Shown here piece after piece: positions 784-30,165 of a stretch of 33,927 bases of DNA. Position 1 is the stretch's first letter. Every line of letters begins with the position of its first letter. The position numbers were made by a program, and so were the translations under genes. Origin of the DNA: Trueperaceae bacterium (GTDB lineage Bacteria > Deinococcota > Deinococci > Deinococcales > Trueperaceae); contig DASSXV010000042.1 of NCBI GenBank assembly GCA_035703635.1, positions 1 to 33,927 of the forward strand, given 5' to 3'. Below the pieces are notes generated by a model. It had not been told where the DNA came from. It made no database searches and saw nothing but the letters and a program-made list of their open reading frames with translations.

Positions 784-1413
784 ATGTTGTTGGGTCACGG
801 TTTCTCCGGGGGTTGGATTGAGGTCATCGCGGGTCCCATGTTCTCCGGTAAGAGCGAGGAGCTCATCCGGCGCGTTACGCGCGCGGTGATCGCCAAGCAG
901 AAGGTGCAGGTCTTCAAGCACGCCATAGATGATCGGTACGCCAAGTTGGCCGTTGCATCGCATGCCGGTCGGACGCTCGAGGCAGAGCTGGTGGCAAGCG
1001 CCGATGAGTTGCTTGCGCGCCTCAGCCTAGAGACGCAGGTGGTGGCCGTTGACGAGGCGCAGTTCCTCGACGCCGAAGTCGTGGCCGTAGTCGAACGGTT
1101 GGCTGACTCCGGCAGGCGCGTGATCGTGGCCGGCCTGGACATGGACTTCAGGGGCGAGCCGTTCGGCGCCATGCCACAACTCATCGCCCGGGCGGAGGTC
1201 GTCGAGAAGCTAACGGCCATCTGCCGTTGCGGGCAGGCGGCCACGCGCACGCAGCGCCTCATTCATGGCCGGCCAGCGCACTACGACGACCCAACCGTCT
1301 TGGTTGGCGCCGCCGAGAGTTACGAGCCGCGCTGCCGCTCATGCCACGTGGTGTTGAGGGGTCTACGCGAGGCGCCACTGTTCTTGGAGCAGGTGGCCGA
1401 GGTGCGTGGTTGA
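784..1413 (+). CDS. tdk: Thymidine kinase (type II)
   Basis: [12 protein letters not shown]-loop, [19 protein letters not shown], lasso/Zn motifs CxC and YEPRCRSC. Confidence 0.96.
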
Positions 1414-4028
1414 CGGAAGCTGAGCAGCTGAGCGGCGTGCGGCCACTCGAGGCGCAGCTGTGGGGGGAAGTGCGCTTTTCACACGCAGGCGTGGCCGTCG
1501 AGCCGCCTTCTCACAAGGCCGCCGCCTTGCTTGCTTACCTCGTCGTTGCGCCAGCCGCCGTTCGGCGCGAGGAGCTCGCCGCCCTGTTGTGGAGCCCTGA
1601 TCGACTAGCGAACGTGCGTCAGGCGCTTTACACGCTGAGGTCGTTGCCTGGCGCGGATGAGTGGTTGGATGACGGCGTGAAACGCGTTAGCGTGCGCGCC
1701 GTTTCGGACGTCGGCCGATTGCGGGAGGCGGACGGGAACGACCTGGCCGCGCTCGTCGACGGGCTTGGCGGGACCGAACTGCTGGCAGGCTTCGGGGCGC
1801 GGCTCCCGAGCGAGTACCTCGAGTGGCTGACCCGTGAGCGTGCGAGCAGCGCCGACCTGGTGCGAAGTGCGTTAGCTGAACGCGCCGCCCAGCTCGAGGG
1901 TCAAGGGGAGGCGAAGCGGGCGCTCGAACTCACGGTGCGGGCTCAGGCTCTTGACCCGTACGACGAGGAGCTGCAGCGCTCCGCCATGCGCCTGGCCTAC
2001 GTCTCCGGCGCAGCTGACGTGGCGCTCGCGAGCTTCGCCGCGTTCACGGAGCGCCTGGCGGTCGACCTTGGTGCGGAGCCGAGCAGCGAGACGGCTGAGT
2101 TGGCGCGCCGCATCGAACGCCGTGAACCGCTCGGCCTGCGGGCGGCGCTGGCGGCCCTCAGCGACCTTGACCGCCGCACCTTGCAGGCATTGGCCCTGGC
2201 GCGCGGCGCGTTACGCGTGGACGGCCTCGCTAGCGTGCTGGAGCGGCCAGCATTCGAGTTGGTCGCCGACCTCGCCCGCTTGGCGGAGCGCGGGCTAATA
2301 GATGAGCACCTAGGGCTGAGTCCTGAGCAGCGCGCTGCCATCCTCCCTGGGCTCCCTGCGCCACTGAGGCGCCTCCTTAGCGAACGCATCGTGGCGGTGC
2401 TACGCAACGACGTAACCGCCGACCAGGGCGCATTAGCGCGCCACCTCCTGGCTGCTGGTGAGCGAGCAGAGGCAGCGAGCCGTGCGCTTGCAGGCGCTAG
2501 GGCAGAAGTGGAGCGTTCGCACGTCGAGGCCGCGGACGAACTCGCGTACCTCACGCTGTGGGCGGCGCCCTCAGAACCGACGCTGCGGCTCGAGGCCGTC
2601 CTGTTGCTCGAGCGCAACGCGGCCAGCCGCATGAACCTCGATGCTCAAGCTGACTTCCTCGATGAGGCAGAGCGGCTGGCGTGGGAGTTGCAGAGCGACG
2701 CCGCGCTCGCCGAGTGCAACGTCAGGCGCACCCGCTTCCTGCTCGCCCGCGGCCGCGTCGGCGAGGCGCTCGAGGAGGCACTCAAGGCGTTGGAGACGGC
2801 GCTGCGTATCACGGATGACAGCCTGGTCGCGCGCGCAAGGAACGCGGTCGGGGCGGCACACTTCTACGCAGGCGACCTTGACGGCGCGGCCGCCTCCTTC
2901 GCAGCCAGCCTTGCTGGCGCTGACGACGTCGAGCGCTACCGTGCGCACAACAACCTCGGCAGCATCAACGCCATGCGCGGGAGGCTAGACGAGTCGTACC
3001 ACCACTTCGACGAGGCCCTGACGCTGGCAAGGCGCCACTCGCAACACCTCGACGTAAGCGCGACCCTCAACAATCTCGCCGCCAGCGCCGAGCGCTTCGG
3101 CGATTACGCGCGGGCGGAGCGCCACTTCAAGGAGGGCATCACCGTCGCGCGGCGCGCCAATGCGCTTAGGCGCGAGGCGGAGATGCTCATCAACCTGGCC
3201 GTCGTCTACGGCCGCCAAGGTCAGCTTGGGCCCGCGTGGAACACCACGGCGGAGGTTGAGGTCCTGGCGCACGAGCTGGCCGATCGGCGCCTGAGCATGC
3301 GCGTGTCCGAGCAACGCAGCGAGATCAAGCGCCTCTGCGGCGACCTGCCCGGCGCGGTCGACGCCCTGAACGCCGCACTAGACCTCGCGACCTCGTTGGG
3401 TGACGAACGCAAGCGCCTCGCGCTCAGGGCGCAACTATTGGCGGCCGAGGCGCGCCTCGACCCGCGTGTGGTCCCACGACTTGAGCTGGCGATCCTAGAT
3501 CTGGAAGCCGCCCGACTCACCGACGTGGCGCCGTGGCTGAGGCTCGAGCTGGCGCTGTGCACCAGCGATGTCGCGGTCGCGCAGGCGCAACTGGCCGTGG
3601 TCGACGAGGGGCAGCTCAAGAGCGCGCACCAGCGCCTAGTGCGCGAGGTCGTCTGCATGCGCCTCGCACTGCTCCTTGGGGCCGATGCAGCCGTCAAGCG
3701 CGCGGGGTTAGAGGCGCGCGAACGACTCGCGCACGCTGGCCTCATTCGCGCCAGCCACGCTCACACCACCGGAGCGCCCCAAGTTGAGCGTGCCGAGGTG
3801 ATGATCGTCGAAGGCCCGAAGGCCCGCTATCTCGCTTGGCTACTCGAGCCGGACGCCCCACCGAGCTGGCCGCCCCCGCCTCCGCCGCCAGCCGTAGTGG
3901 CTGAGCTGCGGGAACAGGGAGCCGGCCTCCCTCGCGCCATGGCAGCCTCGCTGCTCGAACTACCTGCCGCCTGGCTGGACCCTCAGGGATGGCTCGGGCA
4001 TGGGTCCGGCTCTTTGACACCTCGTTGA
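1410..4028 (+). CDS. SARP/BTAD-type transcriptional regulator with C-terminal TPR array
   Basis: N-terminal wHTH-like segment ([29 protein letters not shown]), BTAD motifs ([31 protein letters not shown]), TPR repeats (NNLGSIN, NNLAAS, INLAVVY). TTG start at 1410 overlaps the tdk stop; exact start uncertain. Confidence 0.85.
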
Positions 4029-4046
4029 CACCAGACCAACTAGTCT
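4014..4046 (+). promoter_or_regulatory. Direct-repeat promoter copy 1: TTGACA-N5-TTGACA-N10-TAGTCT
   Basis: TTGACACC at 4014 and 4025 (11-bp period), then TAGTCT at 4041-4046, upstream of the 4145-12847 gene block. Confidence 0.65.
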
Positions 4047-4144
4047 TCTCACAACCGCAATGGGGGCCCAGCCGCAACGCGGCCGGGCCGCGCAGTGAGT
4101 AGGGGCGGCAATGCCACCGGCAGTAGCGAGGCGAGAGGTGCAGC

Positions 4145-4342
4145 GTGACCGACAGCAGTCATAGGTTCTTACTCAAGGTCTGGCGTGAACCGGGAGCGCA
4201 GCCGAACTGGCACGCGACCCTGCGCGACGTCAGCGATGGTTCGGTCCACGAGTTCAGAGCGACAGAGGCCCTACTCGATTACTTGGTGACCCTAGACGAC
4301 GTCGGGGCCACGGACGAGCACATCGAAGAGGAGAGGCGATGA
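4145..4342 (+). CDS. Small hypothetical protein (FLLKVWRE...WHATL...F...EALLDYL)
   Basis: 65 aa, GAGAGG SD before GTG, stop overlaps the next ATG (ATGA). Resembles small proteins I recall next to BTAD regulators. Confidence 0.7.
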   Translation: MTDSSHRFLLKVWREPGAQPNWHATLRDVSDGSVHEFRATEALLDYLVTLDDVGATDEHIEEERR

Positions 4343-4959
4343 AGAAGAAGTTCGCGTTCGGATGCTTGATCGTTGCCATAGCCGTCCTCGTGGTGGGCGG
4401 CGGCGCCGCCTACGTCTACGTCATCAGGCCGTTGACCAACACCGTCAAGGCCGGCATGGAGCTCCCTAAGCTCGCCGAACTCGACCGCCAGGTGAGCAAC
4501 AAGCGCGCCTTCTCCGCCCCAGAAGGGGGCTTGCTGCAGGCAAGCGACGTTGAGCGTTACCTGCGGGTGACAGGCAGCGTCATGACCGGCCTCGAGGGCA
4601 AGGCGAGCGAGTTGGAGAAGAAGTACGCCCAACTCAAGGACGGCAACCCAGGTATCCGCCAGGTCATCAACGCCTACGCAGACATCATCCAACTAGTCGT
4701 GGCGGCCAAGGAGATGCAAGTGAAGGCCCTCAACGACGCGAACTTCTCTCTCGATGAGTACGCCTGGGTGCGCGGCGCAGTCCTGCAGGCCACTGGCCAC
4801 ACGCCCGCGCTCGTCAACCTCTCGGCGCTAGCGGCTGGCGAGGTGGAGGAGAGCACGGCGGCCAGCACTACCGGCGTGCCCGAAGCGAACGTGACCTTGG
4901 TAGCGCCTTACGCTGAGCGCGTCGGCGAGTACCTGCCGCTAGCGCTGTTCGGGCTATGA
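4339..4959 (+). CDS. Membrane-anchored hypothetical protein
   Basis: GAGAGG SD; basic N-terminus followed by one hydrophobic helix (FGCLIVAIAVLVVGGGAAYVYVI), helical remainder; overlaps both neighbours by 4 nt. Confidence 0.8.
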   Translation: MKKKFAFGCLIVAIAVLVVGGGAAYVYVIRPLTNTVKAGMELPKLAELDRQVSNKRAFSAPEGGLLQASDVERYLRVTGSVMTGLEGKASELEKKYAQLKDGNPGIRQVINAYADIIQLVVAAKEMQVKALNDANFSLDEYAWVRGAVLQATGHTPALVNLSALAAGEVEESTAASTTGVPEANVTLVAPYAERVGEYLPLALFGL

Positions 4960-7352
4960 GGCGCAGCTCAGGCCTGCGCTCCGTCCTCGTGGCGGGCGCC
5001 AGGCACCTGCTCACGTGCGTGCTTGCCATCGCCATTTCACTACCGCTGGCACCGAGTGCCGTGGCGCAGGGAGCACTGACCAGCGAGGCGGCCAAAGAAC
5101 TCGCGCGCCAGCGGAACATGCTCGAGGTGGCGTTAGCTGGCGTCGACCGCAGCAGGCTCGACCTAGACGACCAGCGCCTGGACGCCGCGTTCATGGACGC
5201 ACAGGAACTCGAGGAGCTGCTGGCCACCGATTACCGCTTCGAGCTCTACCGCGGCCTCCTGCGGGGCGCAGAAGCCACGTTCATCTCTCGCGCAGGCAAC
5301 GCGCTCGACCTCTCCTTCTTGTTGGCGACGCTCCTTGAGGACGCCGGTTACGACGCCCGCATCGCCCTCGGTTCCCTGACGGAGGCAGATGGCGAGCGGT
5401 TGTTGGAGCGCGTGCTCGAGCCTGTCGTAGTCCGTGACGGTTCGTCCCCCGACCAGGTCAGCGCACTAGCGCGGGCTGCCGACGTGAGCTTGGACGAGTT
5501 GGAGAAGTACGGTCGCGCACTGGCTGCAGTGGAACTCGAGGAGACGGCACCTTACCTCGAGGCAGAAGCGGCCAGCGCCGCGCTGCTGGACGCGTTGGCT
5601 GCGGCCGGCGTTGCCCTCGTCGCGGACGATCACGCCGCGCTCCTCGCAGAAGCCATGGAGTATGCCTGGGTGGAGTACCGCTTGGGAGACGCGGCCTGGG
5701 AAGCCGTTCACCCGGCGTTCGGCGCCCTGCCAGCGCCGGACGTCGTGGCAGACGACCACATCGAGTCAGCCGTACCAGAGGGGCTCCAGCACCGCCTGCG
5801 GGTGGAGGTTGGCATCGAACGCAAGCGCGGGAACGAGTTCTTCGAGGAGCAGATCATGACGCCGTGGGAGCGGCCCGTCGCGAACATGTTCGGCATCAAC
5901 CTCGCGGTGACCAACTCGCCACTCGATCAGCCGGCGGACGCCACGCTCGAGGACCTGGGCACGACCTTGAGGGAAACCGCCTTCTTCGTCCCGCTCCTCA
6001 ACGGAGTGCTCGCGCCAGGGGCGCTAGCCTTCGACACCATGGGCAACCTGCTCTCGCCTGCGGACGCGGCCAGCGCAATGGCTGGCGTGTTCCAGACGGC
6101 AGCGAGCAAGATGGGCCAGGCGACCGGACTCCTTGGCGCCCTCGGCACCGACGCCCCGGCAGACATGGAGCCGTTCGCGTTGACTGCCCAGTTCGTCGAC
6201 GTCATACACGTGGCGCCGGGTGGTGCCGAGAACCGGCAACGCCGCTACGTCTTCGACCGCCGTGGAGGCGCAGCGCGCGTGCAAGGCGGTGCGGAGTTGC
6301 TCGACGAGAGCGTATTGCTGAACGGCATACTGAGCAGCATGGAGTTCATGGTGACGGGGGCGTCGTTGCCGACCGAGTACCTCGTTGACGACTCGGTGCA
6401 GCAGGGCCTGCGCTACTTGGACGCCATCGAGAGGCTGGCACGGAACCCGGACCTCGGTCTGATCGACGGCGTCGGCGGCCTGCAAGGCCGCGACCAGCTC
6501 TTGCTGATGGCGCTCTTCGAGGGGGTCGCGCCCGTAGCGGGCGGCGCCGGTTACCGCGCGGCGCCGACGGTCGTCTCGATCAGGCAGGCGCTATCGATCG
6601 GCGAGTCGGTTGGCGGCGAGTTGGGCGTCGACATCTTGCATAGCAGCCGGCGTTTCCTCACGACGGGCCCGTCAGGGGTCGTCAGCGACGCTAACCGCGC
6701 CGTTCTGGCTGGCGCGTGGGACACGATGGTCGAGCGCCTGTACGTCGAGCGTTTCGCTCAAGGGGTCGACAGCGCCTTCTCTAGCTTCGCGGACGGCTCG
6801 GGGCCGCTGACGGTGCTGACCGATGTGGCTGAACTACGAGGGTCTGGTGCTCCGGATGCGGCATTGCCAGCCTTGCAACGCGACCTCGCCGCAGGCAACG
6901 TGGTCGTGTACGCTAGCGACCACGCTGCTAGCGGCACGGCCTTCAGTTGGTGGCGCGTCGATCCCGCTACGGGGACAACGCTCGGGATAGGTAGCCGCGG
7001 CCACGGGAACGCTGCGGTCGAGTACCTCGTCCCTTGGCAGATCAGCCTTACCGTCGCAGGGGTCCTGGCCGTTCCAGGTGCGATGATCTGTGCTAGCCAA
7101 AGCGGCGACGCCCTGATCATCTGTCTGTGCGACATGGTTACTGGGGTGGTCATCTTCGGGAGCATCGGCATCGGCCTAGGCGCGGCGCTGGCTGGTGCCT
7201 CCGCCGCCGTGCAAGTTGGCGTGTCGGTCGGGATGTTCATAGGTTCGGACATCGGCCTAGGCTCCGCGATGCTCACGCCCCTTGGCGGCCCGTGCACGTG
7301 GGCGGACCGACTGATGAGCTTCCAGCCACGGACTACGTGCATTCTAGGGTGA
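4956..7352 (+). CDS. Secreted transglutaminase-fold protein (catalytic triad apparently lost) with hydrophobic C-terminal tail
   Basis: Sec-type signal (...LPLAPSAVA|QG); YRGLLRGAEATF..GNALDLSFLLATLLEDAGYDAR, YAWVEY and WEAVHP resemble the TGase-like core; Gly/Ala-rich hydrophobic last ~110 aa. Confidence 0.7.
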   Translation: MRRSSGLRSVLVAGARHLLTCVLAIAISLPLAPSAVAQGALTSEAAKELARQRNMLEVALAGVDRSRLDLDDQRLDAAFMDAQELEELLATDYRFELYRGLLRGAEATFISRAGNALDLSFLLATLLEDAGYDARIALGSLTEADGERLLERVLEPVVVRDGSSPDQVSALARAADVSLDELEKYGRALAAVELEETAPYLEAEAASAALLDALAAAGVALVADDHAALLAEAMEYAWVEYRLGDAAWEAVHPAFGALPAPDVVADDHIESAVPEGLQHRLRVEVGIERKRGNEFFEEQIMTPWERPVANMFGINLAVTNSPLDQPADATLEDLGTTLRETAFFVPLLNGVLAPGALAFDTMGNLLSPADAASAMAGVFQTAASKMGQATGLLGALGTDAPADMEPFALTAQFVDVIHVAPGGAENRQRRYVFDRRGGAARVQGGAELLDESVLLNGILSSMEFMVTGASLPTEYLVDDSVQQGLRYLDAIERLARNPDLGLIDGVGGLQGRDQLLLMALFEGVAPVAGGAGYRAAPTVVSIRQALSIGESVGGELGVDILHSSRRFLTTGPSGVVSDANRAVLAGAWDTMVERLYVERFAQGVDSAFSSFADGSGPLTVLTDVAELRGSGAPDAALPALQRDLAAGNVVVYASDHAASGTAFSWWRVDPATGTTLGIGSRGHGNAAVEYLVPWQISLTVAGVLAVPGAMICASQSGDALIICLCDMVTGVVIFGSIGIGLGAALAGASAAVQVGVSVGMFIGSDIGLGSAMLTPLGGPCTWADRLMSFQPRTTCILG

Positions 7353-7399
7353 GTCGCAGCAGTATCGGCGCCGTCAGCTAGCGGCGCGAGGAGGAGTAG

Positions 7400-10300
7400 A
7401 TGAGCGTCAGTCGACCGGCTCGTATAGAGCGCTCGCCCTGGGGGCGAACCTCGCGCAAGCGCATGGCCATGCTTGGGGTGCTCTTCAGCCTGTGCGCCGC
7501 GATCACGGGCAGCGCGCTGGCGCAGCAGTGCACGTATGAATCGGAGCCGAACGACACGCCGGCCACCGCGACGAGGTTGACGGGCGCAGGGCCGAACATG
7601 ATCGCGCCAGCTAGTTACAACGAGGTTGGCGCACTCTGCCTCACAGGCACGGTAGGTAGTAGCGACCAAGACGCGTTCAGGTGGGACGTAACCGCTGAGG
7701 ACGCTAGGCACCGCTGGACGCTCGCCGTTGAGGGGCCGCGCAACAGCGTTACTACGGTCGAGCTGTTCAGGGTGACTTTCGCAGATAACGGCGTGGACGT
7801 CACGCAGGTCGAGAAGTACCCTAGCGTGACCACGCAGAACGGCAGCGCGGCCAAGTCGCGCGAGTTCCTCATCCAGCCGGGCAGCTACTACCTCGGCGTG
7901 GCGACGAGCGGGTCTGCCGGGGAGTTCGTCGCCAACCTAGCGCCGGTAACTACGTTGCGCTACGGCGCAGACGATGCCCGCTACGACGAGGGGGGCCCCC
8001 GGAAGTACGTGGGGGCGTTCGGGTGGTTCGGGCCGGTGGTCGAAGAGTTGGCGGTTAGCGTCAGCATCGACGAGGAGGCCGCAAGGCGCGTGTGGGGCCT
8101 TGAACTGTGGGCAGCGTACGGCTCCACACCGAAGCTGGAACTGGAAGGCCCAGCTGGCGTTGTCAGTCAGGGTGCTGTAGACGCTAGCGGCCGCGTGCGC
8201 TTCACCGGCCTCGGGTTGCCGGTAGGCGATTACACGGTCAAGGTGGTTGGTGACAGCGGCATGGTGCGCTTGCGCCTTGAGTCGCAAGGAGTGCGCGGCG
8301 ACGGGATCGCTGTAGAGCCGAACGACGACTGGGCGCGGGCGACCGTCTTCCCTCTCGGCAGTGAGATGCGCGCCACCTTACAGAACCGCGATTACTACCG
8401 CACCGAAGTGACAGCGGCCGACGCTGGCTACTACGACCTGACCTTCGAGTCGGCTGCTGACCTCACCTACTCGCTTAATGACGACGCCGGTGGAGCGCTC
8501 ATGTACTCGCGCCCAGGCGTGACCCACGCCAGCCTGTACTTGCGCGCAGGCAGCTATCAGCTGCTGGTAGAGGGGACTAACGGCGTCAGCTACAACATGG
8601 CGCTACGGCCAGGCACCGCCTTAGCGGGTGGAGACGTGGAGCCGAACGATTACCCCAGGTCAGCCAGCCCGCTGCCGGAGAACGGTCAGGTCCGCGGCAG
8701 GTTCGTTGGCCCGGAAGCGGACGTTTACTCCGTTCAGGTGGTAGGCGCGGCGCAGCGCTACCGCATTCAGTTGGTTGGCGCCAACATCTCGAGCCTGACC
8801 GAGTTGGCCGTGTCGGGAGGGAGGCTGGCGCAGGCACGCGGTTCAGGGCGGCTGCGCCTCGACGACCTCGTGCTCATGCCTGGCCTGCACTACTTCGAGG
8901 TGCGCGGCAGTGCTGGCGAGTACGCCCTCAGGGCCATCTCGTTGGGTGACGCAGAAGTCGGCGCAGTCGTGGCGGCGCCAGCCAGCGACGCAGTCCTCAC
9001 GCCAGCTGCGGCAGGCACGCCGGATGACGGGGCGGCGGCGGCGGTGGAGGCGCTTGAGGCCGCCGTGCTCGAGCCCGGCCCACCCCCGCCTGCAGGCACA
9101 CTAGAGTTGGAGCCGAACGATGACCCCAGTCGGGCGATGCGTGTCGTACCTGGTCACGTTTACGTAGGTCGCCTGACGGGCGACAGCGACGACTACTACC
9201 GTTTCTTCCTGGCCGATGACCAGTACGTGATCATCGAGGTCGTAGCGCCTAGCGGCAGCCCGCCCATCGACGTGAACCTGGCGGGTAGCGGCTGGGCGGA
9301 GTTCCCGCCCGACGCGGGGGAGGCCACCACCCGCATCGAACGCCTCTTCCTCGCTGGTGATCACACCTTCTACCTCAACGCACCGAAGCTCGAGACAGAC
9401 GGCTACTACCAGCTGAGGATGACCTTGGCTGGCAGCCTCATGCCGCCAGTAGACGCAGAGCCGAACGATAGCCGCGCCACGGCAGCTACGCTGCCAGCCG
9501 AGCTGCGCTGGCAGGGCAACGTCGGTGAGTACAGCGACGACGACTACTACCGCCTACCAGTCTTCGAGCAAGCGACGGCCATCGAGGTGACGTTGAGCGG
9601 GGCCAGCAGCCGGCTGCGGGTCGAACTGCGCACTGAGGCGGCCAACATCGCCCTCGCCGAATCCGGCGACGCCCAGAGCGGCACCCCGTGGCGCGGCACG
9701 CTGCCCGCCGGAGAGCAGGTCTTCCTGCGCTTATCCGGCAAGTCGCCCTACAGCGCCGAGGTGAGTTTCGGCGCGACACCGGACCCGGCCCAGTTGTTGC
9801 CGCCCCGGGACTCTAGCTCGCTGGCGTTAACGCTCACTTCCCCGACAGACGCCCTAGCCGCCTTCTGGCACGAGGGTCAGGCACTGACCATGACGGCGCA
9901 CATCGAGAACCGCAGTAGTGAACCGCAGCAGCTGCAGCTGGAGGCAGCGAGTAGCCACGCCAGCGTGCGGTTCGATTTCGAGCCGCAACTGACGCTGGCT
10001 GCGGGCGAGAGCCGCGCTGTCCCGGTCGAGGTACTCGTGCCAAGCGACATGCGTGACGACCTGCCCCTACGCGTCGAAGTCGTCGCGGCTACTGCTAGCG
10101 GCGCCAACGTGGCGGCGGTCGAGGCGACGTTCGCCTGCGAAGCGGCGCCAGCCTCAGCGTTCGCCTACTGGCCCCTGCCCCCCAGCCTGCTCGGCAAGTT
10201 CGACGTGCTAGGCACTGGCTTCGGTGCCGCGATTCACGGTGAGTCGAGCTACGTGCGGCGCGACCTAGCGCTCATCGACGGGCGCGTGGGCCCGGCTTCC

Positions 10301-12847
10301 GGCGGCTACCTCGGCCTGGAGCATTCGCCTACTTACCGTCTCGCGGGAGACGCCCCCGTCACCCTCATCGGCAGCACTCTCGACCCGCGCTCGGACGCTA
10401 ACCGCGCCGACTTCGTCAAGGTTTTCCGCATCGAGACGTCACTTGACGGGCACACCTTCACCGTTGCCTACCAAGGTGTTCTGAAGGCCGCAGGCGCTGA
10501 ACAGGCTTTCGTGTTCGACCAACCTGTCAAAGCGCGCTACGCACGGCTGGTGTCCGTCAGTACCCAAGGCGCCACGAACAACGCCTACCTAGGTGAGTGG
10601 AAGCTCATCGCGGCAGAAGGCGACCTGTTCGGCGAGCTCGACCTCGCCGACGCCCGGAACGGCGGCCACGTCGCGTGGAGCGAACCGTACCTGGCCAGCT
10701 CCGGCCGTGGCATGCTCACCCCTGACGACGGGCAAGGCACCAAGCTGGACCTGCGTGAGATCGGAGCCTTCACGTTCGTCGTCGGCTTCCACGACAACCG
10801 TGCCGCCCAGTTCACGCGCATCGAGTGGCAAGAGGAGGCAGCGGCGCAGAGCGAACCCCAAACCATGTTCGCTAGCGTCACGGTCGAGGTGAGCCAAACA
10901 GGCGGTGCCGGCCCGTGGGCGCCGCTCGCCGACTGGCAACTTCAACGGGGTGCCACCGGTCTGGCGACCTTGCAGTTCGACGCTCCGGTGTGGGCGCGCT
11001 ACTTGCGCTTCACGAGCGCTCCCGTGGAGGGTGCGGACGGCAAACTTGGACGCTACTATTACGCCCCGGACGTCGTGCGAGTGATCGAGCGCGCCACGAA
11101 CGACGAGTACCGCTCAGCGCTCGCCGAGTGGGGTGCCAGCTCGCGGGCAGCTGTCTACGAGTACCTCAACCCGCCGACCCTGGCGCAGAACGTCGCAGAC
11201 GCCGGCAACGACAGCCGCGCGAACGCTTCGCCGGCACCGGTCGGCGCGCAACTGACGGGCACTGTGCAGGTAGCCAGCGACGAGGATTGGTACCAGTTGA
11301 CCATCCCAGGTGGGCAGAACTACCTTGAGCTCACCCTCGGTGGCGATCCGGCCATCGCTTACCGCTACGAACTCGTTAGCGCCGACGGCCTGCCGCTAGG
11401 CTTCGATGAGCGCCACGACGGGGACGACGTCGTTCTCTCCCTCTACGCGGAGCCAGGCGACTACTACCTCCACCTGTGGGAGCCCAAGCGCACCGTGGTC
11501 TTCAGTTGGGACACGAGCGGCTCCGTGAGCCAGTACCAGGCCATCACTTACAACTCGTTGGCGAGTTTCGCCACCGGTCTTGACGGGGAGCGCGAGGCCG
11601 CTCAGCTACTTGCCTTCGACGACCCGACTCCTAAGTGGTTGTTGCCCTTGTGGTCGACCGACCCGCAACGTGTGCAACGCGCCATCGTGGAGTTCGACCG
11701 CCACGCGGACTCTAGCTCGTCTGAAACGGCGCTCCTGACCGCCACCATGGCGTTGGCCGCTCGCGATGGCACCCGTGCCATCTTGCTCATGACCGACGCA
11801 GAGTCGACCAGTAGCCAGTTCACGCCCGCCCTGTGGCGCGCGTTCGAGGAGGTGCGGCCGCGCGTCTTCACCTTCGAGATCGCCTCCGGCGGCAACGATT
11901 ACGCCCAAGACCTAATGCAGGACTGGGCTGGCGTCAACGCCGGGGCGTACGCCCTCGCGGCCGGGGTAGGCGACTTCGACGCTGGCTTCTCGCGCGCGTC
12001 GTGCCTCCTGCGGCGCCCGAAGCAGTACACGCTCGCGCTTGACGTCCGTAGCCAGCCCCTCCCAGGGCCGGGCAGCCTCGCGGTGCGCGCGGCGCCCGGC
12101 GCTGCGCAGGCAGCTGTCGAGGTCATCTTCGACGCGAGCGGCTCGATGGGTCGCGAGTTGCCGAGTGGCGAGCAGCGGTTAACGGCCGCCAAGCGCGCGC
12201 TGACCGCGCTCGTCAGCGAGGTACTGCCAGAAGGCACCCCGTTCGCGCTGCGCGCGTTCGGGCACATCACCCCAACATCGTGCGAGTCGCGCCTCGACGT
12301 GCCGTTGGCGCCACTCGATCGCGCCAAGGCGCAGGCGGCCGTCGACGCGATTCAACCTAAGCTCTTGTCCCAGACGCCTCTCGCGGACTCGTTGCTTGCC
12401 GTTGGCAGCGACCTGTCCAAGGCCGGCGGCGCGCGCACGGTCATCCTGATAACTGACGGGGCGGAGTCGTGCGGCGGCGATCCGGCGGCGGCCGTGCGGG
12501 AGGCACGCAAGCAGGGGAGCCTGGACCTTGCCATCGTGTCGCTCGGGCTCGAGCCGCAAGCGTTGGCCGTGTTCGAGAAGCTCGCCGCCGACGTGGGCGC
12601 CAGCTACGTCGACGTTGGTTCGTACGAGGCGCTCGCCGAGGCGGTCGCGGAGGCGCTCAACCCGGCATACGAGGTGTATGACGCGACCAGTGGCGAGCTC
12701 GTGGCCCGCGGGCGCGTTGGCGGGGAAGCCATCGATCTGGAGATGGGGGTCTACAACGTGCGCGTCCTCGTGGCGCCGGTTGAGGAGTTCAGGGAAGTAC
12801 GCGTTCCGGGCGAGAAAGCCGTGACGCTGACGCTAAGCGGTCATTGA
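7400..12847 (+). CDS. Giant secreted multidomain protein: PPC-like EPND repeats, Ig-like domain, two discoidin-like domains, two VWA domains
   Basis: GAGGAG SD; signal peptide (GSALA|QQ); EPND motifs at 7544, 8315, 8639, 9110, 9458 and GND at 11204; FVFDQPVKARYARL and FDAPVWARYLRF; MIDAS motifs DTSGS (11510) and DASGS (12131) with LMTDA and LITDG. Confidence 0.85.
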   Translation: MSVSRPARIERSPWGRTSRKRMAMLGVLFSLCAAITGSALAQQCTYESEPNDTPATATRLTGAGPNMIAPASYNEVGALCLTGTVGSSDQDAFRWDVTAEDARHRWTLAVEGPRNSVTTVELFRVTFADNGVDVTQVEKYPSVTTQNGSAAKSREFLIQPGSYYLGVATSGSAGEFVANLAPVTTLRYGADDARYDEGGPRKYVGAFGWFGPVVEELAVSVSIDEEAARRVWGLELWAAYGSTPKLELEGPAGVVSQGAVDASGRVRFTGLGLPVGDYTVKVVGDSGMVRLRLESQGVRGDGIAVEPNDDWARATVFPLGSEMRATLQNRDYYRTEVTAADAGYYDLTFESAADLTYSLNDDAGGALMYSRPGVTHASLYLRAGSYQLLVEGTNGVSYNMALRPGTALAGGDVEPNDYPRSASPLPENGQVRGRFVGPEADVYSVQVVGAAQRYRIQLVGANISSLTELAVSGGRLAQARGSGRLRLDDLVLMPGLHYFEVRGSAGEYALRAISLGDAEVGAVVAAPASDAVLTPAAAGTPDDGAAAAVEALEAAVLEPGPPPPAGTLELEPNDDPSRAMRVVPGHVYVGRLTGDSDDYYRFFLADDQYVIIEVVAPSGSPPIDVNLAGSGWAEFPPDAGEATTRIERLFLAGDHTFYLNAPKLETDGYYQLRMTLAGSLMPPVDAEPNDSRATAATLPAELRWQGNVGEYSDDDYYRLPVFEQATAIEVTLSGASSRLRVELRTEAANIALAESGDAQSGTPWRGTLPAGEQVFLRLSGKSPYSAEVSFGATPDPAQLLPPRDSSSLALTLTSPTDALAAFWHEGQALTMTAHIENRSSEPQQLQLEAASSHASVRFDFEPQLTLAAGESRAVPVEVLVPSDMRDDLPLRVEVVAATASGANVAAVEATFACEAAPASAFAYWPLPPSLLGKFDVLGTGFGAAIHGESSYVRRDLALIDGRVGPASGGYLGLEHSPTYRLAGDAPVTLIGSTLDPRSDANRADFVKVFRIETSLDGHTFTVAYQGVLKAAGAEQAFVFDQPVKARYARLVSVSTQGATNNAYLGEWKLIAAEGDLFGELDLADARNGGHVAWSEPYLASSGRGMLTPDDGQGTKLDLREIGAFTFVVGFHDNRAAQFTRIEWQEEAAAQSEPQTMFASVTVEVSQTGGAGPWAPLADWQLQRGATGLATLQFDAPVWARYLRFTSAPVEGADGKLGRYYYAPDVVRVIERATNDEYRSALAEWGASSRAAVYEYLNPPTLAQNVADAGNDSRANASPAPVGAQLTGTVQVASDEDWYQLTIPGGQNYLELTLGGDPAIAYRYELVSADGLPLGFDERHDGDDVVLSLYAEPGDYYLHLWEPKRTVVFSWDTSGSVSQYQAITYNSLASFATGLDGEREAAQLLAFDDPTPKWLLPLWSTDPQRVQRAIVEFDRHADSSSSETALLTATMALAARDGTRAILLMTDAESTSSQFTPALWRAFEEVRPRVFTFEIASGGNDYAQDLMQDWAGVNAGAYALAAGVGDFDAGFSRASCLLRRPKQYTLALDVRSQPLPGPGSLAVRAAPGAAQAAVEVIFDASGSMGRELPSGEQRLTAAKRALTALVSEVLPEGTPFALRAFGHITPTSCESRLDVPLAPLDRAKAQAAVDAIQPKLLSQTPLADSLLAVGSDLSKAGGARTVILITDGAESCGGDPAAAVREARKQGSLDLAIVSLGLEPQALAVFEKLAADVGASYVDVGSYEALAEAVAEALNPAYEVYDATSGELVARGRVGGEAIDLEMGVYNVRVLVAPVEEFREVRVPGEKAVTLTLSGH

Positions 12848-12876
12848 CGGGGCGTTGACGCCGCTCCGTCTATTCT
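12844..12876 (+). promoter_or_regulatory. Direct-repeat promoter copy 2: TTGACG-N5-TTGACG-N10-TATTCT
   Basis: TTGACG at 12844 and 12855 (11-bp period), TATTCT at 12871-12876; same geometry as copy 1. Confidence 0.65.
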
Positions 12877-12924
12877 GCCGCCAACCTGAACCGTTCCAAC
12901 GCGGAACCTAGAGAGGACTGGAGT

Positions 12925-13950
12925 ATGCCCAAGATCTACCTCGGCGAGGCCATTCGGCTCGTCATGCAGACCCTGCCGATCGTGTGGGTGAGGCTCGGCA
13001 GCTACCTCGTGCTCGGCCTGGGGCTCGGCGTCTACGCCGGAGTCTGCTTCGGGCTCGGGTGGTTGTTCGCCAAGCTGTGGGCGCCCCTCGGGTTCATCAT
13101 CTTCCTTGCCGCGTTCGGCGGGGCGTTCTGGATCGTCAACCTGGCGGGCCGCTACTGGTTCCACTTGCTGAGGGCCGCGCATACGGCGGTGTTGACTGAG
13201 TTCATCACCACTGGCAAGGGGCCAGCTACGGGCCAACTCGAGTACGGCAAACAACAGGTCCTGAGCCGCTTTTCGGACACCTCCATCTTGTTCGGCGTCG
13301 GCCTGCTGGTGGACGGCATCGTGAAGTTCGTGGTGCGTACATTCACGCGCATCGCCTCGATCCTGCCGCTGCCAGGCGTCGACTCCCTCGGCAAGTTCCT
13401 CGAGCGCGTTGCCACCATGAGCACGACCTACGTGGATGAAGCCATCCTGTCGCGCGCTTACGCCCAGCGCGAGCAGAACGTGTGGGCAGTGGCCAAGGAC
13501 GGCGTCGTGCTTTACGCCCAGGCCTGGAAGCCCATCTTGGCCAACGCGGTGGTGCTGGCGCTCCTAAGCTACGCGGAGTTCGTCATCTTCTTGATCATCC
13601 TTGGGCTGCCTGCGCTCGCCATCGGCGCCGCGCTGCCGAGCCTCGGACCCGCGCTAGGCATCGGCGTGGTCATCGGCGCCTGGATGCTCAAGCTGGCGTT
13701 GGCCGACGCGATCTCGCTGGCTGCGACCCTCCTCGCCTTCCACCGCTCGACGGCTGGCATGACGCCGAACGCCGAGTGGGTCGCCAAGCTGGACGGCGCT
13801 AGCGACAAGTTCAGGGAGCTCGGCCGCAAAGCGGCAGCGTACGTTGCCCCGCAGGCGGCGCCCGCGGCGGCGGGCGCGACGGGGGCGGGCGCCATGGAAC
13901 CAGTCGCGTTGCCAGGCGCAGTTGGCGAGGAGCCGTTAGGGACGGCCTAA
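12925..13950 (+). CDS. Polytopic membrane protein of unknown function
   Basis: GAGGA/GGAG SD; about 5-6 hydrophobic segments; conserved-looking TYVDEAILS motif; low-complexity Ala/Gly/Pro tail. Confidence 0.82.
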   Translation: MPKIYLGEAIRLVMQTLPIVWVRLGSYLVLGLGLGVYAGVCFGLGWLFAKLWAPLGFIIFLAAFGGAFWIVNLAGRYWFHLLRAAHTAVLTEFITTGKGPATGQLEYGKQQVLSRFSDTSILFGVGLLVDGIVKFVVRTFTRIASILPLPGVDSLGKFLERVATMSTTYVDEAILSRAYAQREQNVWAVAKDGVVLYAQAWKPILANAVVLALLSYAEFVIFLIILGLPALAIGAALPSLGPALGIGVVIGAWMLKLALADAISLAATLLAFHRSTAGMTPNAEWVAKLDGASDKFRELGRKAAAYVAPQAAPAAAGATGAGAMEPVALPGAVGEEPLGTA

Positions 13951-14039
13951 CGCGCAGTTCGCTTGCGCGCCTCGACTGGCAGAGGGGTAGGCTGGGGCCG
14001 CGGCTCTTCGCCGCATATCTTCGAGCTGAGGAGAGCCGC

Positions 14040-15215
14040 ATGCCTACCATCGCAGAACAGGCCAAGGCGCTGCACGAACGCACCGTGGCGGTCCGCCGCG
14101 ACCTTCACCGTCACCCGGAGGTCGCTTTCGAGGAGCACCGCACGATGGCGGTCATCGTCGCGCGTCTCCGTGAGTTGGGGCTGGAGCCCCGCGAGGGCGT
14201 TGGCGGCACTGGAGTCGTGGCCGTGTTCGACACGGGGAGGCCCGGCCCCACGGTGTTGGCGCGCGCCGACATGGACGCGCTGCCAGTCGCCGAGGAGAAG
14301 TCGGTCGCATACCGCTCTACGGTGCGGGGGAAGATGCACGCCTGCGGTCACGACGGGCACGTTGCCGTGCTCCTCAGCGTCGCGGAGATCATTGTCGCGC
14401 GCGCGGCGCAACTCGCTGGCCGCGTCGCGTTCGTGTTCCAACCCGCTGAGGAGATCGTTAGGGGCGCGCAGGCCATGCTCGCCGACGGGGCCCTTGACGG
14501 CATTGCCGTCGACCAGGTGATCGGCCTGCACCTCTCTAGCAACGACCCGCTCGGCACCGTGGCGGTGCGTGAGGGGCCAGCGATGGCCGCCACCGACTCG
14601 TTCAAGCTGGTGGTCAAGGGCCGCGGGGGCCACGCCGCTTACCCGCACGCCTGCATAGACCCGATCGTTGCCAGCTCGCAGCTCGTCATGGGGCTCCAGA
14701 CGCTGGTGAGTAGGGAGACCGACCCCGTCGACCAGTCGGTCATTAGCATCACGAGCTTTCATGGCGGCACCGCTTACAACATCATCCCGGAAGAGGTTGA
14801 GCTGAAGGGCACGCTCCGCACCTTCGATGCCGACACGCGGGCAAGGTTGCGGACGCGCATCTTGGAGGTTGCGGAAGGCACGGCCAAGGTCATGCGCTGC
14901 ACGCTGCAGTCTGAGTGGTTCGAGGGCACTCCGGCGGTCGTCAACGATGCATATTCCGTCGCACGGTTCCGAGAAGTGGCGGCGCGCGTCGTCGGCGAGG
15001 ATGGCGTAACGCTACAGGCGCCGATCATGGGTGGCGACGACATGGCGTTGTGGTTGGCTCAGGCGCGCGGCTGCTACTTCTTCGTCGGTACCAACTCGGG
15101 CCCAGACACCGCGTGGGCGCACCACCACTCACGCTTTGACATCGATGAACGCGGCCTCGAGATCGCAGTCAACCTGTTGGCCTCCGGCGTGTCCGACCTG
15201 ATGAGCGGCGACTGA
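14040..15215 (+). CDS. M20D-family amidohydrolase (metallopeptidase)
   Basis: RRDLHRHPEVAFEE, RADMDALP, MHACGHDGH, FQPAEE, GRGGHAA, HHHSRFDIDE; GAGGAG SD. Confidence 0.93.
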   Translation: MPTIAEQAKALHERTVAVRRDLHRHPEVAFEEHRTMAVIVARLRELGLEPREGVGGTGVVAVFDTGRPGPTVLARADMDALPVAEEKSVAYRSTVRGKMHACGHDGHVAVLLSVAEIIVARAAQLAGRVAFVFQPAEEIVRGAQAMLADGALDGIAVDQVIGLHLSSNDPLGTVAVREGPAMAATDSFKLVVKGRGGHAAYPHACIDPIVASSQLVMGLQTLVSRETDPVDQSVISITSFHGGTAYNIIPEEVELKGTLRTFDADTRARLRTRILEVAEGTAKVMRCTLQSEWFEGTPAVVNDAYSVARFREVAARVVGEDGVTLQAPIMGGDDMALWLAQARGCYFFVGTNSGPDTAWAHHHSRFDIDERGLEIAVNLLASGVSDLMSGD

Positions 15216-15235
15216 CGACCGGCCGCAGAAGGACG

Positions 15236-15270
15236 AAAAGGGGGCGCCTCGGCAGACGAGGCGCCCCCTT
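15236..15270 (-). terminator. Intrinsic terminator between convergent genes (possibly bidirectional)
   Basis: 14-bp perfect stem AAGGGGGCGCCTCG / CGAGGCGCCCCCTT, 5-nt loop, T-run on the minus strand. Confidence 0.85.
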
Positions 15271-15284
15271 GCTTGTGCGGAGGG

Positions 15285-15920
15285 TTAGAACTTGGCGCGT
15301 AGAGCCGCCACGACCTGGCTGACGGCGGTGTTCGCTGCCTCTGCGAACAGCGGCCCGACGGTCGGGTCGTTGTACGCCACGGTGCCTGCGAGGGGCACGT
15401 TGTTGACGTTGATGTTGGGGCTGCTTGCTTCGCCGGAGCCCTTCATGGAAACGACGACCACGCCAGTGATGATGTCGGTGGCGCGCACGTCAACCTCGAT
15501 CTGGGCCTTGGTTTGGCCGAGCGTCACGCCGAAGAGGCTGCCGCCAGGGCGCGCCACTGTGGCGCGGGTGACGGTGCCAGTCACGACGTAGCCAGCGCCT
15601 GCCGCCTTGGCGAGGTCGACTGGGTCGAGCGACTCCAGGCCCTGCTTCTCCATGATGGTGAGGAGCTCGCTGCGCTCGACGACCACGTAGCAGCCTGACT
15701 CCTTGAGCAAGGTGATGAGGCGCGCGGTGGCGGCGTCTTCGACGCCAACGACACTAACGCCGCCTTGGCTCGAGGTGTTCTGGAAGTCGACGACGGCGAC
15801 GGTCGGGATGGGGTCCGACACGCAGGCCGTGGGTCCGGCCGCGACCTCGGTCGTTGGCGCACAGGCGCCGAGGGCCACTAGTGTCGTCAGGAGCAGGGCT
15901 AGTAGTGGTCTACGCTGCAT
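15285..15920 (-). CDS. CsgG/HfaB-family lipoprotein
   Basis: Lipobox LGA|C; VAVVDF.N, VVVERSEL..IMEKQ, GAGYVVTGTVT, VDVRATDIITG.VV, typical of the CsgG/TolB-N-like fold; GAGGAG SD. Confidence 0.82.
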   Translation of the reverse strand: MQRRPLLALLLTTLVALGACAPTTEVAAGPTACVSDPIPTVAVVDFQNTSSQGGVSVVGVEDAATARLITLLKESGCYVVVERSELLTIMEKQGLESLDPVDLAKAAGAGYVVTGTVTRATVARPGGSLFGVTLGQTKAQIEVDVRATDIITGVVVVSMKGSGEASSPNINVNNVPLAGTVAYNDPTVGPLFAEAANTAVSQVVAALRAKF

Positions 15921-15982
15921 ACTTTGGTTCTCCTCTTCGCGACGGAGTTCGCCGCCAAAACCCTGGATTGAACAACTCAGAC

Positions 15983-16014
15983 AGGCTAGCAGAACGACGT
16001 CAAAGCGCCATCAA
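15983..16014 (-). promoter_or_regulatory. Direct-repeat promoter copy 3: TTGATG-N5-TTGACG-N9-TAGCCT
   Basis: Minus strand TTGATG (16014-16009) and TTGACG (16003-15998), 11-bp period, then TAGCCT (15988-15983), upstream of the CsgG-like gene. Confidence 0.55.
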
Positions 16015-18493: not shown

Positions 18494-19957
18494 CTAGCCC
18501 TCGTGCAGCGCCTTGATGGCCTGGCGCACGCCAGCGCCGTAGGCCGGGTCGGCCTGGGTGCAGTGGCCGATGTGGCGTTCGATGGTGGCGGCGGACGCGC
18601 CCTTGATGGCGCGCGCCGTGTTGTCGAACAACGCCTGCTGCTGCTCAGCGTTCATGAGCCTGAACAGGTCGCCCGGCTGCTCGTAGTAGTTGCTGTCGTC
18701 CGCGCGGTAGTCGTGGCGGCCGGCGGTGCCAGACAGCGCCAAGGCCGGCTCTGCGTACTGCGGCTGGGCCTCCCAGTTGCCGTAACTGTTGGGGGTGTAA
18801 CCGGCGGTCGCACCGTGATTGCCGTCGACGCGCATCTGGCCGTCACGGTGGTAGGTGTTCGGGTGCGCGACCCCGCGCGGCTGGTTCACCGGAATCTGGT
18901 GGTGGTTGACGCCTACGCGGTAACGCGCGGCGTCACCGTACGAGAAGAGGCGCCCTTGCAGCATGCGATCAGGCGATACGCCGATACCAGGCACGAGGTT
19001 GGCTGGGGTGAAGGCGGCCTGCTCGACGTCGGCGAAGTAGTTCTCCGGATTGCGGTTCAGTTCGAACTCGCCAACCTCGATGAGGGGGTAGTCCTTCTTC
19101 GACCACACCTTCGTTACGTCGAACGGGTGGAAGCGGTAGTTGGCCGCCTCGGCCTCTGGCATTACCTGGATGTAGAACGTCCACTTGGGGAAGTCGCCGC
19201 GGTCGATGGCCTCGAGCAAGTCACGCTGCGACGACTCGCGGTCGTGCGCTACGAGCGCGGCCGCCTCGGCGTCCGTCAAGTTCTTGATGCCCTGCTGGGT
19301 GCGGAAGTGGAACTTCACCCAGAAGCGTTCACCGGCCGCGTTCCAGAAGGAGTAGGTGTGCGAACCGAAGCCGTGCATGTGGCGGTAACCGTCAGGGATG
19401 CCGCGGTCGGACATGAGCACCGTCACCTGGTGCAGCGCCTCCGGGAGGTTCGTCCAGAAGTCCCAGTTGTTCTCTGCCGAGCGCATGTTGGTTCGTGGGT
19501 CGCGCTTCACGGCGCGGTTCAGGTCGGGGAAGTGGTGAGGATCTCGGTGGAAGAACACGGGGGTGTTGTTGCCGACCACGTCCCAGTTGCCTTCTTCGGT
19601 GAAGAAGCGCAGTGCGAAACCGCGGATGTCCCGCTCGGCGTCCGCCGCGCCGCGTTCACCCGCGACGGTGGAGAAGCGCGCGAACATCTCCGTTTGCTTG
19701 CCGACCTGCGAGAAGACGGCCGCACGCGAGTACTTTGTGATGTCGTGGGTGACGGTGAACTTGCCCCAGGCGCCAGAACCCTTGGCGTGCATGCGGCGCT
19801 CTGGGATGACCTCGCGGCTGAAGTGCGCCAGCTTCTCGAGGAACCAGGCGTCCTGCAGGAGGATCGGGCCGCGCGGCCCGGCGGTGATGGCGTTGTCGTT
19901 GTCTGCGATGGGCGCGCCAGCGGCAGTCGTCAGTGGCTTCTTGGCATCGTCGTTGAT
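18494..19957 (-). CDS. katA: Monofunctional small-subunit heme catalase, apparent ATC start
   Basis: [15 protein letters not shown] (distal His), [25 protein letters not shown] (proximal Tyr). AAGGAG SD lies 7 nt before an in-frame ATC at 19957. Confidence 0.93.
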
Positions 19958-20102
19958 GGGGTGTCTCCTTTTCTCACGTTGCGCATGTTCGGCTTGCGGT
20001 AGGTGCGCGCCCGGCCAGTGGCTGGCTGCCCGAGCTAGTACTCCCAGTATGCCATCGGTTGCGTGAGAGCCGTGTTCCGGGCGCTGGCGCTCGGCGCCGC
20101 CG

Positions 20103-29924: not shown

Positions 29925-30030
29925 TCGTGACCTCCTCGGTAATGGTTCTGCGAGGATAGCCCTAACCTGCGACAGGTAGCGCCGCACCGTGCGCCGGAGA
30001 CGAGCTAGTCGTGCCGCATACGTTGACCAC

Positions 30031-30059
30031 TTGACAAAAGACCGCGCCACCGCTAAAGT
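30031..30059 (+). promoter_or_regulatory. Sigma70-type promoter of the ABC exporter leader
   Basis: TTGACA-17 bp-TAAAGT. Confidence 0.8.
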
Positions 30060-30069
30060 CCCTGACGAT

Positions 30070-30165
30070 ATGGCAGGCGTTCTCAACCACGTCTTTGCGC
30101 GGCGGCGCCACAGCACCGGTGCCAAGCCGCTCATGGGAGAGGACTGCCTGTTCGCCGCTAAGTAA
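30070..30165 (+). CDS. Putative leader peptide MAGVLNHVFARRRHSTGAKPLMGEDCLFAAK (31 aa)
   Basis: ATG 10 nt after the -10 box; contains a segment complementary to the downstream terminator arm. Confidence 0.58.
   Translation: MAGVLNHVFARRRHSTGAKPLMGEDCLFAAK

Follow-up and report, generated by a model that had tools for sequence, protein, structure and literature searches.

What kind of system is encoded by a group of Trueperaceae genes in which a SARP-type activator stands beside a giant exported protein and a transglutaminase-fold protein that has lost its catalytic residues? The genes lie at positions 1410 to 16014 of contig DASSXV010000042.1 (assembly GCA_035703635.1), a stretch of 33,927 nucleotides (nt) that is called the window below, and an earlier note, made from the letters of this DNA, had regarded them as one co-induced envelope apparatus. 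The proteins are referred to here as REG (the activator), o65, m206, TG798 (the transglutaminase-fold, or TG, protein), the giant, m341 and the CsgG-like lipoprotein, and the promoter boxes as P1 to P3 (Table 1). Having compared the locus with other genomes, we conclude that the system has not been described before and is well founded in its regulation and in the genome comparisons, whereas its mechanism is one that we infer. Our preferred account, which we hold tentatively and derive from sequence, is that of a SARP-switched envelope set in which a constant giant scaffold and an exchangeable TG partner would form a contact device that inserts a hydrophobic tail into the touched membrane.

A promoter box that follows the genes

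The genome containing the locus (2.9 Mb, 97.7% complete) was searched for the box TTGAY-N6-TTGAC-N10/11-TAnnnT, and all three of its matches fell at the locus, at 4014 (+), 12844 (+) and 16014 (−). They precede o65 (4145), m341 (12925) and the CsgG-like gene, the same genes in front of which the earlier note had read one shared direct-repeat promoter. Five shuffled genomes gave 0 matches each to this strict box. The bare repeat TTGAC-N6-TTGAC was not enriched (6 in the genome, 2 to 7 in the shuffles), and thus the signal consists of the repeat together with the −10 element. A weight matrix built only from 36 sites of relatives, and then run on this genome, ranked the P1 to P3 sites at the top with scores of 34.3, 32.0 and 30.7, followed by 24.8, while the best score in three shuffled genomes was 20.9. 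None of the three predicted promoters was found by a sigma-70 consensus scan, as activator-dependent promoters are expected to escape such a scan. As separate observations, the fourth-ranked site (C33:37488, 24.8) lies upstream of an exported protein of about 325 amino acids (aa), and another (C66:30285), whose score of 20.8 is within the shuffle range, lies upstream of a lipoprotein-like open reading frame (ORF).

Across 111 Trueperaceae genomes the box had 184 matches in 62 genomes, compared to 17 for the reversed pattern. When full-length orthologues of the regulator were defined by our own cut-off of E≤1e-40, with genome G264 dropped, 33 of the 34 genomes having such an orthologue also had the box. 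It was present in 29 further genomes without a full-length orthologue, where several boxes adjoin other BTAD genes, and therefore a clade of regulators probably has this box in common. The two further BTAD genes of the genome containing the locus have no strict box nearby.

Rearranged loci were used to follow the box together with its genes. In 30 loci picked around these genes, 51 boxes had a called first gene, which was o65, the CsgG-like gene, m341, TG or the giant in 37 cases and another exported protein or lipoprotein in 12; the remaining 2 lay upstream of TG or the giant and had been called in the wrong frame. Where the giant (L020, L029) or TG (L067, L083) stands alone in unrelated surroundings, it has a box of its own. 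Since the box is limited to the locus, resembles AfsR/SARP sites, almost always occurs with the regulator and follows the genes through rearrangements, we consider the three-unit regulon to be real on comparative evidence, with binding of the box by REG predicted. Co-regulation by a SARP-type activator, as had been proposed, is thus strongly supported by genome comparison. We also observed the same box upstream of other lipoproteins and exported proteins in six loci (L124, L125, L116, L118, L120 and L131), some of them beside other BTAD genes with an o65-like gene. The fully rearranged locus L030 has five boxes, including back-to-back boxes between divergent genes (5963/6017 and 12556/12762).

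REG itself matched Pfam BTAD (137-235, above cut-off) and TPR (435-681), while the Pfam scan gave no match to Trans_reg_C on it. A profile of 15 REG orthologues matched AfsR 24-279 (E 1e-11) and EmbR 7-335, starting from profile position 4-7, and the other matches were TPR proteins. REG therefore has the OmpR-type DNA-binding domain followed by BTAD that characterizes SARPs. The nucleoside triphosphatase (NTPase) domain of the NOD/STAND type, which large SARPs have between BTAD and TPR, is missing from it; the Pfam scan found no P-loop or NTPase family, and the AfsR match ends at about 247-279. Five Asn residues (N515, N554, N555, N595 and N611) are invariant in the TPRs, presumably as in peptide-binding TPRs. 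SARP sites are described in PMC10936776 as direct repeats with an 11-bp period that overlap the −35 region, the 3′ repeat lying 8 bp away from the −10 element; P1 to P3 read as predicted sites of this kind, with 11-bp-period repeats about 8 bp from the −10. The small protein o65 is encoded directly after a BTAD gene and box in the Trueperaceae loci displayed, matched no Pfam family above noise, and is likely a regulatory partner.

TG798 and the giant as the core pair

Among 94 Trueperaceae genomes scored for both genes, 45 had TG and the giant, 2 had TG only, 0 had the giant only and 47 had neither, although related genomes are not independent and p values of such co-occurrence are overstated. 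The giant occurred in 23 of 36 Trueperaceae genomes and in none of the 24 genomes from elsewhere in the order; TG was found in 50 of 102 Trueperaceae genomes and 0 of 198 other Deinococcota. In comparison, m341 and the giant were together in 28 genomes, with m341 only in 20, the giant only in 20 and neither in 42, and one genome (G211) has m341 and m206 under a box with no TG match. The CsgG-like gene and m206 were scored in loci only. Of 79 metagenomic TG loci, many of them short or cut by contig ends and some near-duplicates, 41 contained the giant, 13 o65, 11 m206, 10 the regulator, 7 m341 and 7 the CsgG-like gene.

The pair was also detected outside the phylum. TG and the giant are adjacent on an Indioceanicola plasmid (Alphaproteobacteria), and giants of about 1780-1820 aa come from Gammaproteobacteria, for example Thioalkalivibrio. 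Locus L087 has m341, m206, the giant and TG with no regulator or box, and L109 has TG, the giant and the CsgG-like gene together, in what we take from the gene order to be a gammaproteobacterial context. The accessory genes recur and are yet separable, and therefore are not required alongside the core. We thus consider TG798 and the giant, as judged by these distributions, to be the obligate core, with m341, m206 and the CsgG-like protein as accessories; m341 is predicted to be co-regulated yet separable. Of the proposal of one co-induced apparatus, the co-regulation and the co-occurrence of homologues across genomes were borne out, the latter beyond Deinococcota as well, but a single apparatus was too strong a description.

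Among the accessories, m206 has a conserved C-terminal ...FGL and is often paired with m341, and its neighbours in the ESM Atlas are unnamed proteins of Deinococcota and Acidobacteriota. m341 belongs to a widespread family without a name, for which DUF6159 is only a lead with a value below 0.9. Three other families, all unnamed, were recurrent neighbours of TG: lipoproteins of 656-666 aa (L064, L065, L080, L082, L089, L090), exported proteins of about 200 aa (L087, L103, L106, L110) and exported proteins of about 190 aa under a box (L025, L045, L058, L091).

Structure of the two core proteins

The TG family comprises 2404 clusters at 50% identity (E≤0.001), of which the best 150 were inspected, and it has no Pfam or NCBIfam name beyond a weak transglutaminase match. 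A PDB sequence search with the TG profile returned nothing below E 0.7, a plasmid tblastn with TG gave no match, and a cluster look-up of 10 TG relatives gave no names. The model of TG798 is confident in its core, and residues 25-270 match PeiW, TglA and LapG (Z 10.2-10.5, root-mean-square deviation (rmsd) 3.2-3.5, 117-126 residues aligned), with PeiW/PeiP, TglA and LapG spanning Z 9.3-10.5. The modelled domain thus has the fold of the transglutaminase-like superfamily; the fold search says little beyond this domain, and does not speak for a new fold in the rest of TG. The Cys-His-Asp triad of active transglutaminases and peptidases is absent from TG798; its positions, assigned from family motifs, are in 148 sequences A116 (A 73%, S 22%), Y236 (99%) and H252 (97%), and N115 and D118 beside them are invariant.

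The giant consists of a signal peptide, five EPND-headed repeats and one similar motif (PPC-type), an Ig domain, two discoidin (F5/8) domains, a first VWA domain (VWA1, DTSGS), a beta linker, a second VWA domain (VWA2, DASGS) and a C-terminal beta domain; no C-terminal anchor was visible by inspection of hydrophobic segments and domains. Residues 806-1815 were modelled with a pLDDT confidence of 88, and a fold search with them returned generic VWA matches that filled the list, VWA2 reaching a Z of at most 21.5 and VWA1 one of 19.2. Both VWA domains keep DxSGS and TD, as predicted metal ion-dependent adhesion sites (MIDAS) would, and the VWA half is the best-conserved part of the protein. When TG798 (aa 39-798) was modelled together with VWA1 and Mg, the complex scored 0.01; this prediction covers one of about 13 domains and was not used as evidence.

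Exchange of TG as a whole gene

In 24 of 32 locus pairs whose giants were at least 60% identical, the TGs were less than 38% identical, for example 84/32 and 82/35 for giant/TG. Over the 42 loci with both genes, the correlation of TG and giant distances was weak (rho 0.25) where co-divergence would be expected. The giant has a near-constant length and a single match in 40 of 48 genomes, while at least two TG matches were found in 29 of 51 genomes (some are split pieces, and three candidates were scored per genome). Genomes G015 and G016 have no TG at the locus and only distant paralogues. These comparisons indicate that TG is swapped as a whole gene beside near-constant giants, and a constant single-copy giant with a multi-copy, exchanged TG is the pattern of a constant scaffold with exchangeable cargo.

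The genome containing the locus also has a TG paralogue at C26:81229-83847, an 872-aa ORF that stands alone, has a different tail, and has no box among the top-scoring sites. Seven TG matches have one internal stop (G001:C16, G002:C39, G004:C3, G012:C12, G014:C91, G230:C108 and G289:C4), probably from the profile overrunning a short tail.

The junction and the tail

The TG core ends in WWRVDPxTGxTLG..GxG-xxxxEY (aa 665-690), and is followed by a tail with a median of 96 residues, consisting of a helix, a C-loop-C, a Gly-rich helix with GxxxG, a third helix often with Asp, and a final Cys. Three Cys of the TG798 tail (C712, C723, C780) are conserved. Among 175 sequences, G673, G682 and G684 were conserved at 99-100%, E689 at 84%, C712 at 98%, C723 at 99%, and G734/G738 at 73/84%. 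After the junction, 109 of 148 sequences had E at +5 and 99 of 148 had Y/F at +6, and several tails start with ATAVEY or ATATEY. The tail has a median of 4 Cys, compared to 1 in the core. Neither the Cys loop (213 K+R against 245 D+E) nor the stretch following helix 2 (14 against 35, over 710 residues) was enriched in K/R. By an unweighted Hessa sum, the best 19-mer of the tail had a median of 1.2, compared to −2 to 1.4 for the three best m341 helices, and helix 1, with a median of 3.6, scores poorly as a membrane helix. A lipobox was found by pattern in 11 of 172 TGs, about 7 of them convincing, and the tail is retained in them. We rejected the idea that lipobox and tail are complementary, as tail hydrophobicity did not differ between TGs with and without the lipobox (p 0.64).

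Nine fused homologues (P0273-P0281) of 2451-3551 aa have the TG core, the junction, a hairpin of 75-110 residues, a DP motif, and a stalk of Ig, PKD, FG-GAP and discoidin domains; the C-terminus is MYXO-CTERM in one of them and consists of RTX repeats in another. DP is DPP in 7 of 9, and we assume that this Asp-Pro bond may be a processing site. Peak hydropathy is only 1.3-1.4 in four of the nine hairpins. In five, the residue ahead of xAxxEY is H in place of G, and in a sixth H stands ahead of GSGVTEF. The fused stalks do not match the giant's profile, and therefore these forms are analogous to the TG-giant pair and did not arise by fusing it. Their arrangement would place the TG head at the far end.

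What the pair may do

The earlier note had left adhesion, matrix building and antagonism side by side, and from the TG tail and the whole-gene swapping we infer contact-dependent membrane engagement. In the contact device that we tentatively prefer, the Asn-rich TPRs of REG would sense a peptide or protein, two SARP domains would occupy the two repeats and bring in RNA polymerase in the manner of AfsR, and o65 might tune this activation. TG and the giant would then be exported through the Sec pathway. With Ca2+ at its EPND motifs, the giant may stiffen into an arm of fixed length, its discoidin domains and two MIDAS sites binding glycan and protein ligands. The giant would hold TG, whose dead active site could serve as a peptide-binding groove, and the disulfide-stapled tail would be packed on the TG body until contact. 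On contact the tail, whether cleaved or not, would swing outward at the GxG junction and insert into the contacted membrane, different TG alleles giving different specificity. The ring of the CsgG-like protein may be an optional helper in export or anchoring, and so may m341 and m206. Insertion into a contacted membrane is tentatively favoured because of the tail Cys, the lack of positive-inside bias, the marginal hydrophobicity, and the retention of the tail in forms with another anchor.

The most serious rival, which we consider possible but somewhat unlikely, is an inducible adhesin with its own anchor, where the tail hairpin sits in the producer membrane, the dead groove grips the giant or the cell wall, and the giant is a lectin/VWA adhesin for aggregation or biofilm. 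The C-terminal position of the hydrophobic segments, vertically inherited tails, some of them positive-inside, a giant without an anchor of its own, and nearest folds that include the cell-wall isopeptidases PeiW/PeiP beside TglA and LapG all agree with it, as does an anchoring role proposed for inactive transglutaminases in PMC3482391. However, whole-gene exchange and several paralogues would not be needed for an anchor, the tail persists beside a lipobox or MYXO-CTERM, and the low peaks of four fused hairpins and the poor helix 1 do not suit a membrane anchor. Antagonism, with TG798 as a toxin carrier cut at GxG, the Cys-stapled hairpin as pore-forming cargo helped by the giant, and m341 or the producer's own lipids as protection, is in our view unlikely. 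A conserved carrier with an invariant junction and a variable hydrophobic tail, an exchangeable multi-copy TG, SARP control, and the N-terminal inactive transglutaminases of polymorphic toxins (PMC3482391) would fit, but domain scans showed no RHS repeats or known toxin domain, no adjacent immunity-like gene was seen in the loci examined, and m341 is missing in 20 of 48 giant-bearing genomes. Among the clusters displayed there was no recurrent small downstream family after TG, a dedicated profile for orphan tails not being part of that search. We keep this reading low because no immunity gene or tail swap was seen.

We regard as improbable a loose envelope regulon, a periplasmic repair or matrix set in which TG and the giant act on the producer's own wall, perhaps with an altered chemistry at N115/D118/Y236/H252. 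Its modules are indeed separable, other box-controlled genes encode varied lipoproteins, and the replaced triad positions are themselves 97-100% conserved; against this, there is no nucleophile at the Cys position, and a place outside the cell is indicated by the EPND/PPC repeats, by the discoidin and VWA domains, and by fused forms that have an Ig stalk and surface-sorting ends. Least probable is a cryptic pilin, where the tail would be Flp-like (G|xxxxEY and a hydrophobic helix) in a filament tipped by the VWA giant. The E and Y/F after the junction and the ATAVEY/ATATEY starts recall such a signal, but the junction lies about 650 residues behind the Sec signal, which is the wrong membrane side for prepilin peptidase, six of the nine fused homologues have H at −1, and no pilin family matches the tail. 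We thus rejected the class III signal of type IV/Flp pilins, the motif being internal and behind a Sec signal.

Several observations weigh against the contact device. Physical contact between TG and the giant is putative, and nowhere is confidence in the model lower than in the tail (pLDDT 35-70). All Cys would likewise stay outside if helices 2 and 3 formed a re-entrant hairpin in the membrane of the producer itself, and 13 of 172 TGs have a membrane-grade helix 1 with a K/R-rich polar domain after it, as in an ordinary inner-membrane anchor. Tail swapping was rejected, because in 124 pairs whose cores were at least 50% identical the identity of the tails followed that of the cores (the lowest values being 0.22-0.25 at core 0.50-0.57). 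The giant follows TG within 400 nt in 25 of 42 loci, with no dedicated small gene there, and the exchange of TG could partly be hidden paralogy and rearrangement. Of 48 giant-bearing genomes, 17 lack a full-length regulator and 9 lack the box, and therefore the SARP-box regulation is lineage-specific. A more far-reaching version of the contact device, which we find doubtful, is contact delivery across phyla, with one giant lectin/VWA scaffold, a library of TG carriers that would release the stapled hairpin into another cell in order to kill, tether or recognise it, and in Trueperaceae an NTPase-less, peptide-sensing SARP switch.

Layout of the locus and neighbouring genes

Table 1. Features of the locus, with coordinates in the window
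Feature	Position	Strand	Description
REG, SARP-type activator	1410..4028	+	OmpR-type DNA-binding domain and BTAD, helical linker, TPRs
Box P1	4014..4046	+	TTGACA-N5-TTGACA-N10-TAGTCT
o65	4145..4342	+	small cytoplasmic protein, no hydrophobic segment
m206	4339..4959	+	membrane protein, N-terminal anchor
TG798	4956..7352	+	exported transglutaminase-fold protein, catalytic C/H/D replaced
TG798 junction and variable Gly-rich hydrophobic tail	6948..7349	+	junction aa 665-690, tail aa 685-798
Giant, 1815 aa	7400..12847	+	exported; PPC-type repeats, Ig, F5/8, VWA
Box P2	12844..12876	+	TTGACG-N5-TTGACG-N10-TATTCT
m341	12925..13950	+	multi-pass membrane protein
M20 amidohydrolase	14040..15215	+	Pfam
GC-rich hairpin	15238..15270		fold; between convergent M20 and CsgG-like genes
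CsgG/HfaB-family lipoprotein	15285..15920	−	Pfam CsgG
Box P3	15983..16014	−	TTGATG-N5-TTGACG-N9-TAGCCT

The ORFs and ATGA junctions that the earlier note had given were recovered unchanged, the overlaps lying at 4339 and 4956, and the gap between TG798 and the giant ORF is 47 nt. REG starts with a TTG that overlaps the stop of the thymidine kinase gene, and its own stop codon is inside the second repeat of P1. Thymidine kinase flanks the locus on one side and aspartyl-tRNA synthetase on the other, and the G+C of the locus equals that of the flanks. The Pfam scan of the locus gave BTAD and TPR, Transglut_core (weak, E 0.036), VWA, F5/8, PPC and CsgG (E 6e-19). A hydrophobic-segment check agreed that all but the 65-aa ORF have a signal peptide or transmembrane helix: there is one N-terminal segment in m206, a signal at the N-terminus of TG798 with three further segments in its tail, a signal at the N-terminus of the giant, five segments in m341, a lipoprotein signal in the CsgG-like protein and none in o65. 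RNA contigs from four of 22 runs, belonging to two studies, covered most of the locus, and two span the gap between TG and the giant, although DNA carry-over is possible and depth cannot rank the genes.

An M20 amidohydrolase gene lies inside the range described by the earlier note and was passed over there. It is absent from six loci (L024, L025, L030, L032, L129 and L130) and was found in 4 of the 79 metagenomic TG loci, all four with Trueperaceae gene context; we take it for a probable syntenic bystander, which transcription from P2 may reach by read-through. The hairpin behind it is likely a terminator, and was not picked up by the consensus scan. Elsewhere in the window we observed an ordinary catalase (18494-20149), a thiamine pyrophosphokinase fused to a CMD-family domain (20103-21215, −) adjoining an ABC transporter, and an ordinary UvrD-helicase/PD-(D/E)XK pair of 1149 and 950 aa (23836-30134, −), which we take to be AddAB-like.

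Comparison with known systems

The earlier note had recognised no named system here, and by the features compared the locus does not fit Lap, curli, pilins or classical polymorphic toxins. In the Lap system, LapG is an active protease of 200 aa and LapA a giant adhesin. Similar to Lap, the locus combines a transglutaminase-like fold (LapG Z 10.2, rmsd 3.3, 126 residues) with a giant Ca-binding, VWA-containing protein; however, TG798 lacks the active-site Cys and is longer by about 500 residues, a Sec signal and a fixed length mark the giant, which has no RTX/type I secretion end, and the Pfam scan found no LapD or type I secretion genes in the locus. The CsgG-like lipoprotein resembles CsgG/HfaB in its PF03783 match above cut-off and GGxxFG hairpin, but its first beta-hairpin falls short of that of E. 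coli CsgG by about 4 residues. The curli system was rejected despite this family, because curlin (PF07012) and CsgF (PF10614) were not found in the 97.7%-complete genome, with positive controls in E. coli. Bat/MoxR-VWA operons share exported VWA proteins, TPR and membrane genes nearby, and a BatB fold match, yet the locus has no MoxR AAA+ or DUF58 gene, its TPR protein is a transcription factor, and the domain architecture is different.

Polymorphic toxins with an N-terminal inactive transglutaminase, as described in PMC3482391, share with TG798 a signal peptide, a triad-less transglutaminase fold and a variable C-terminus. In TG798, however, no RHS, recognised toxin domain, tail swapping, immunity gene or orphan cassette was seen, it has an obligate giant VWA partner, and instead of a recombined C-terminal domain on a conserved carrier, the whole gene is exchanged. 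The literature searched, with subscription journals thinly covered, held no description of the TG-giant pair, although the alignments of PMC3482391 could include the TG family.

REG is closest to AfsR and EmbR, whose DNA-binding and BTAD module is matched over its whole length and which share the C-terminal TPRs and, according to PMC10936776, 11-bp repeats about 8 bp from the −10. It differs from AfsR in having no NOD/NTPase between BTAD and TPR, in its box (TTGACR) and in its Deinococcota host, and its predicted targets are envelope proteins, compared to antibiotic genes for AfsR-type SARPs. The plainer reading is also of value, as it offers a sharp, testable SARP box and regulon outside Actinobacteria for an NTPase-less SARP, and a single switch by which to induce the system. 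The domain types are known, and what is new compared to the systems above is the pairing, the exchange pattern and the tail; if our tentative reading is true, a scaffold that stays constant while its membrane-active partner is exchanged would represent a novel type of contact machine in bacteria.

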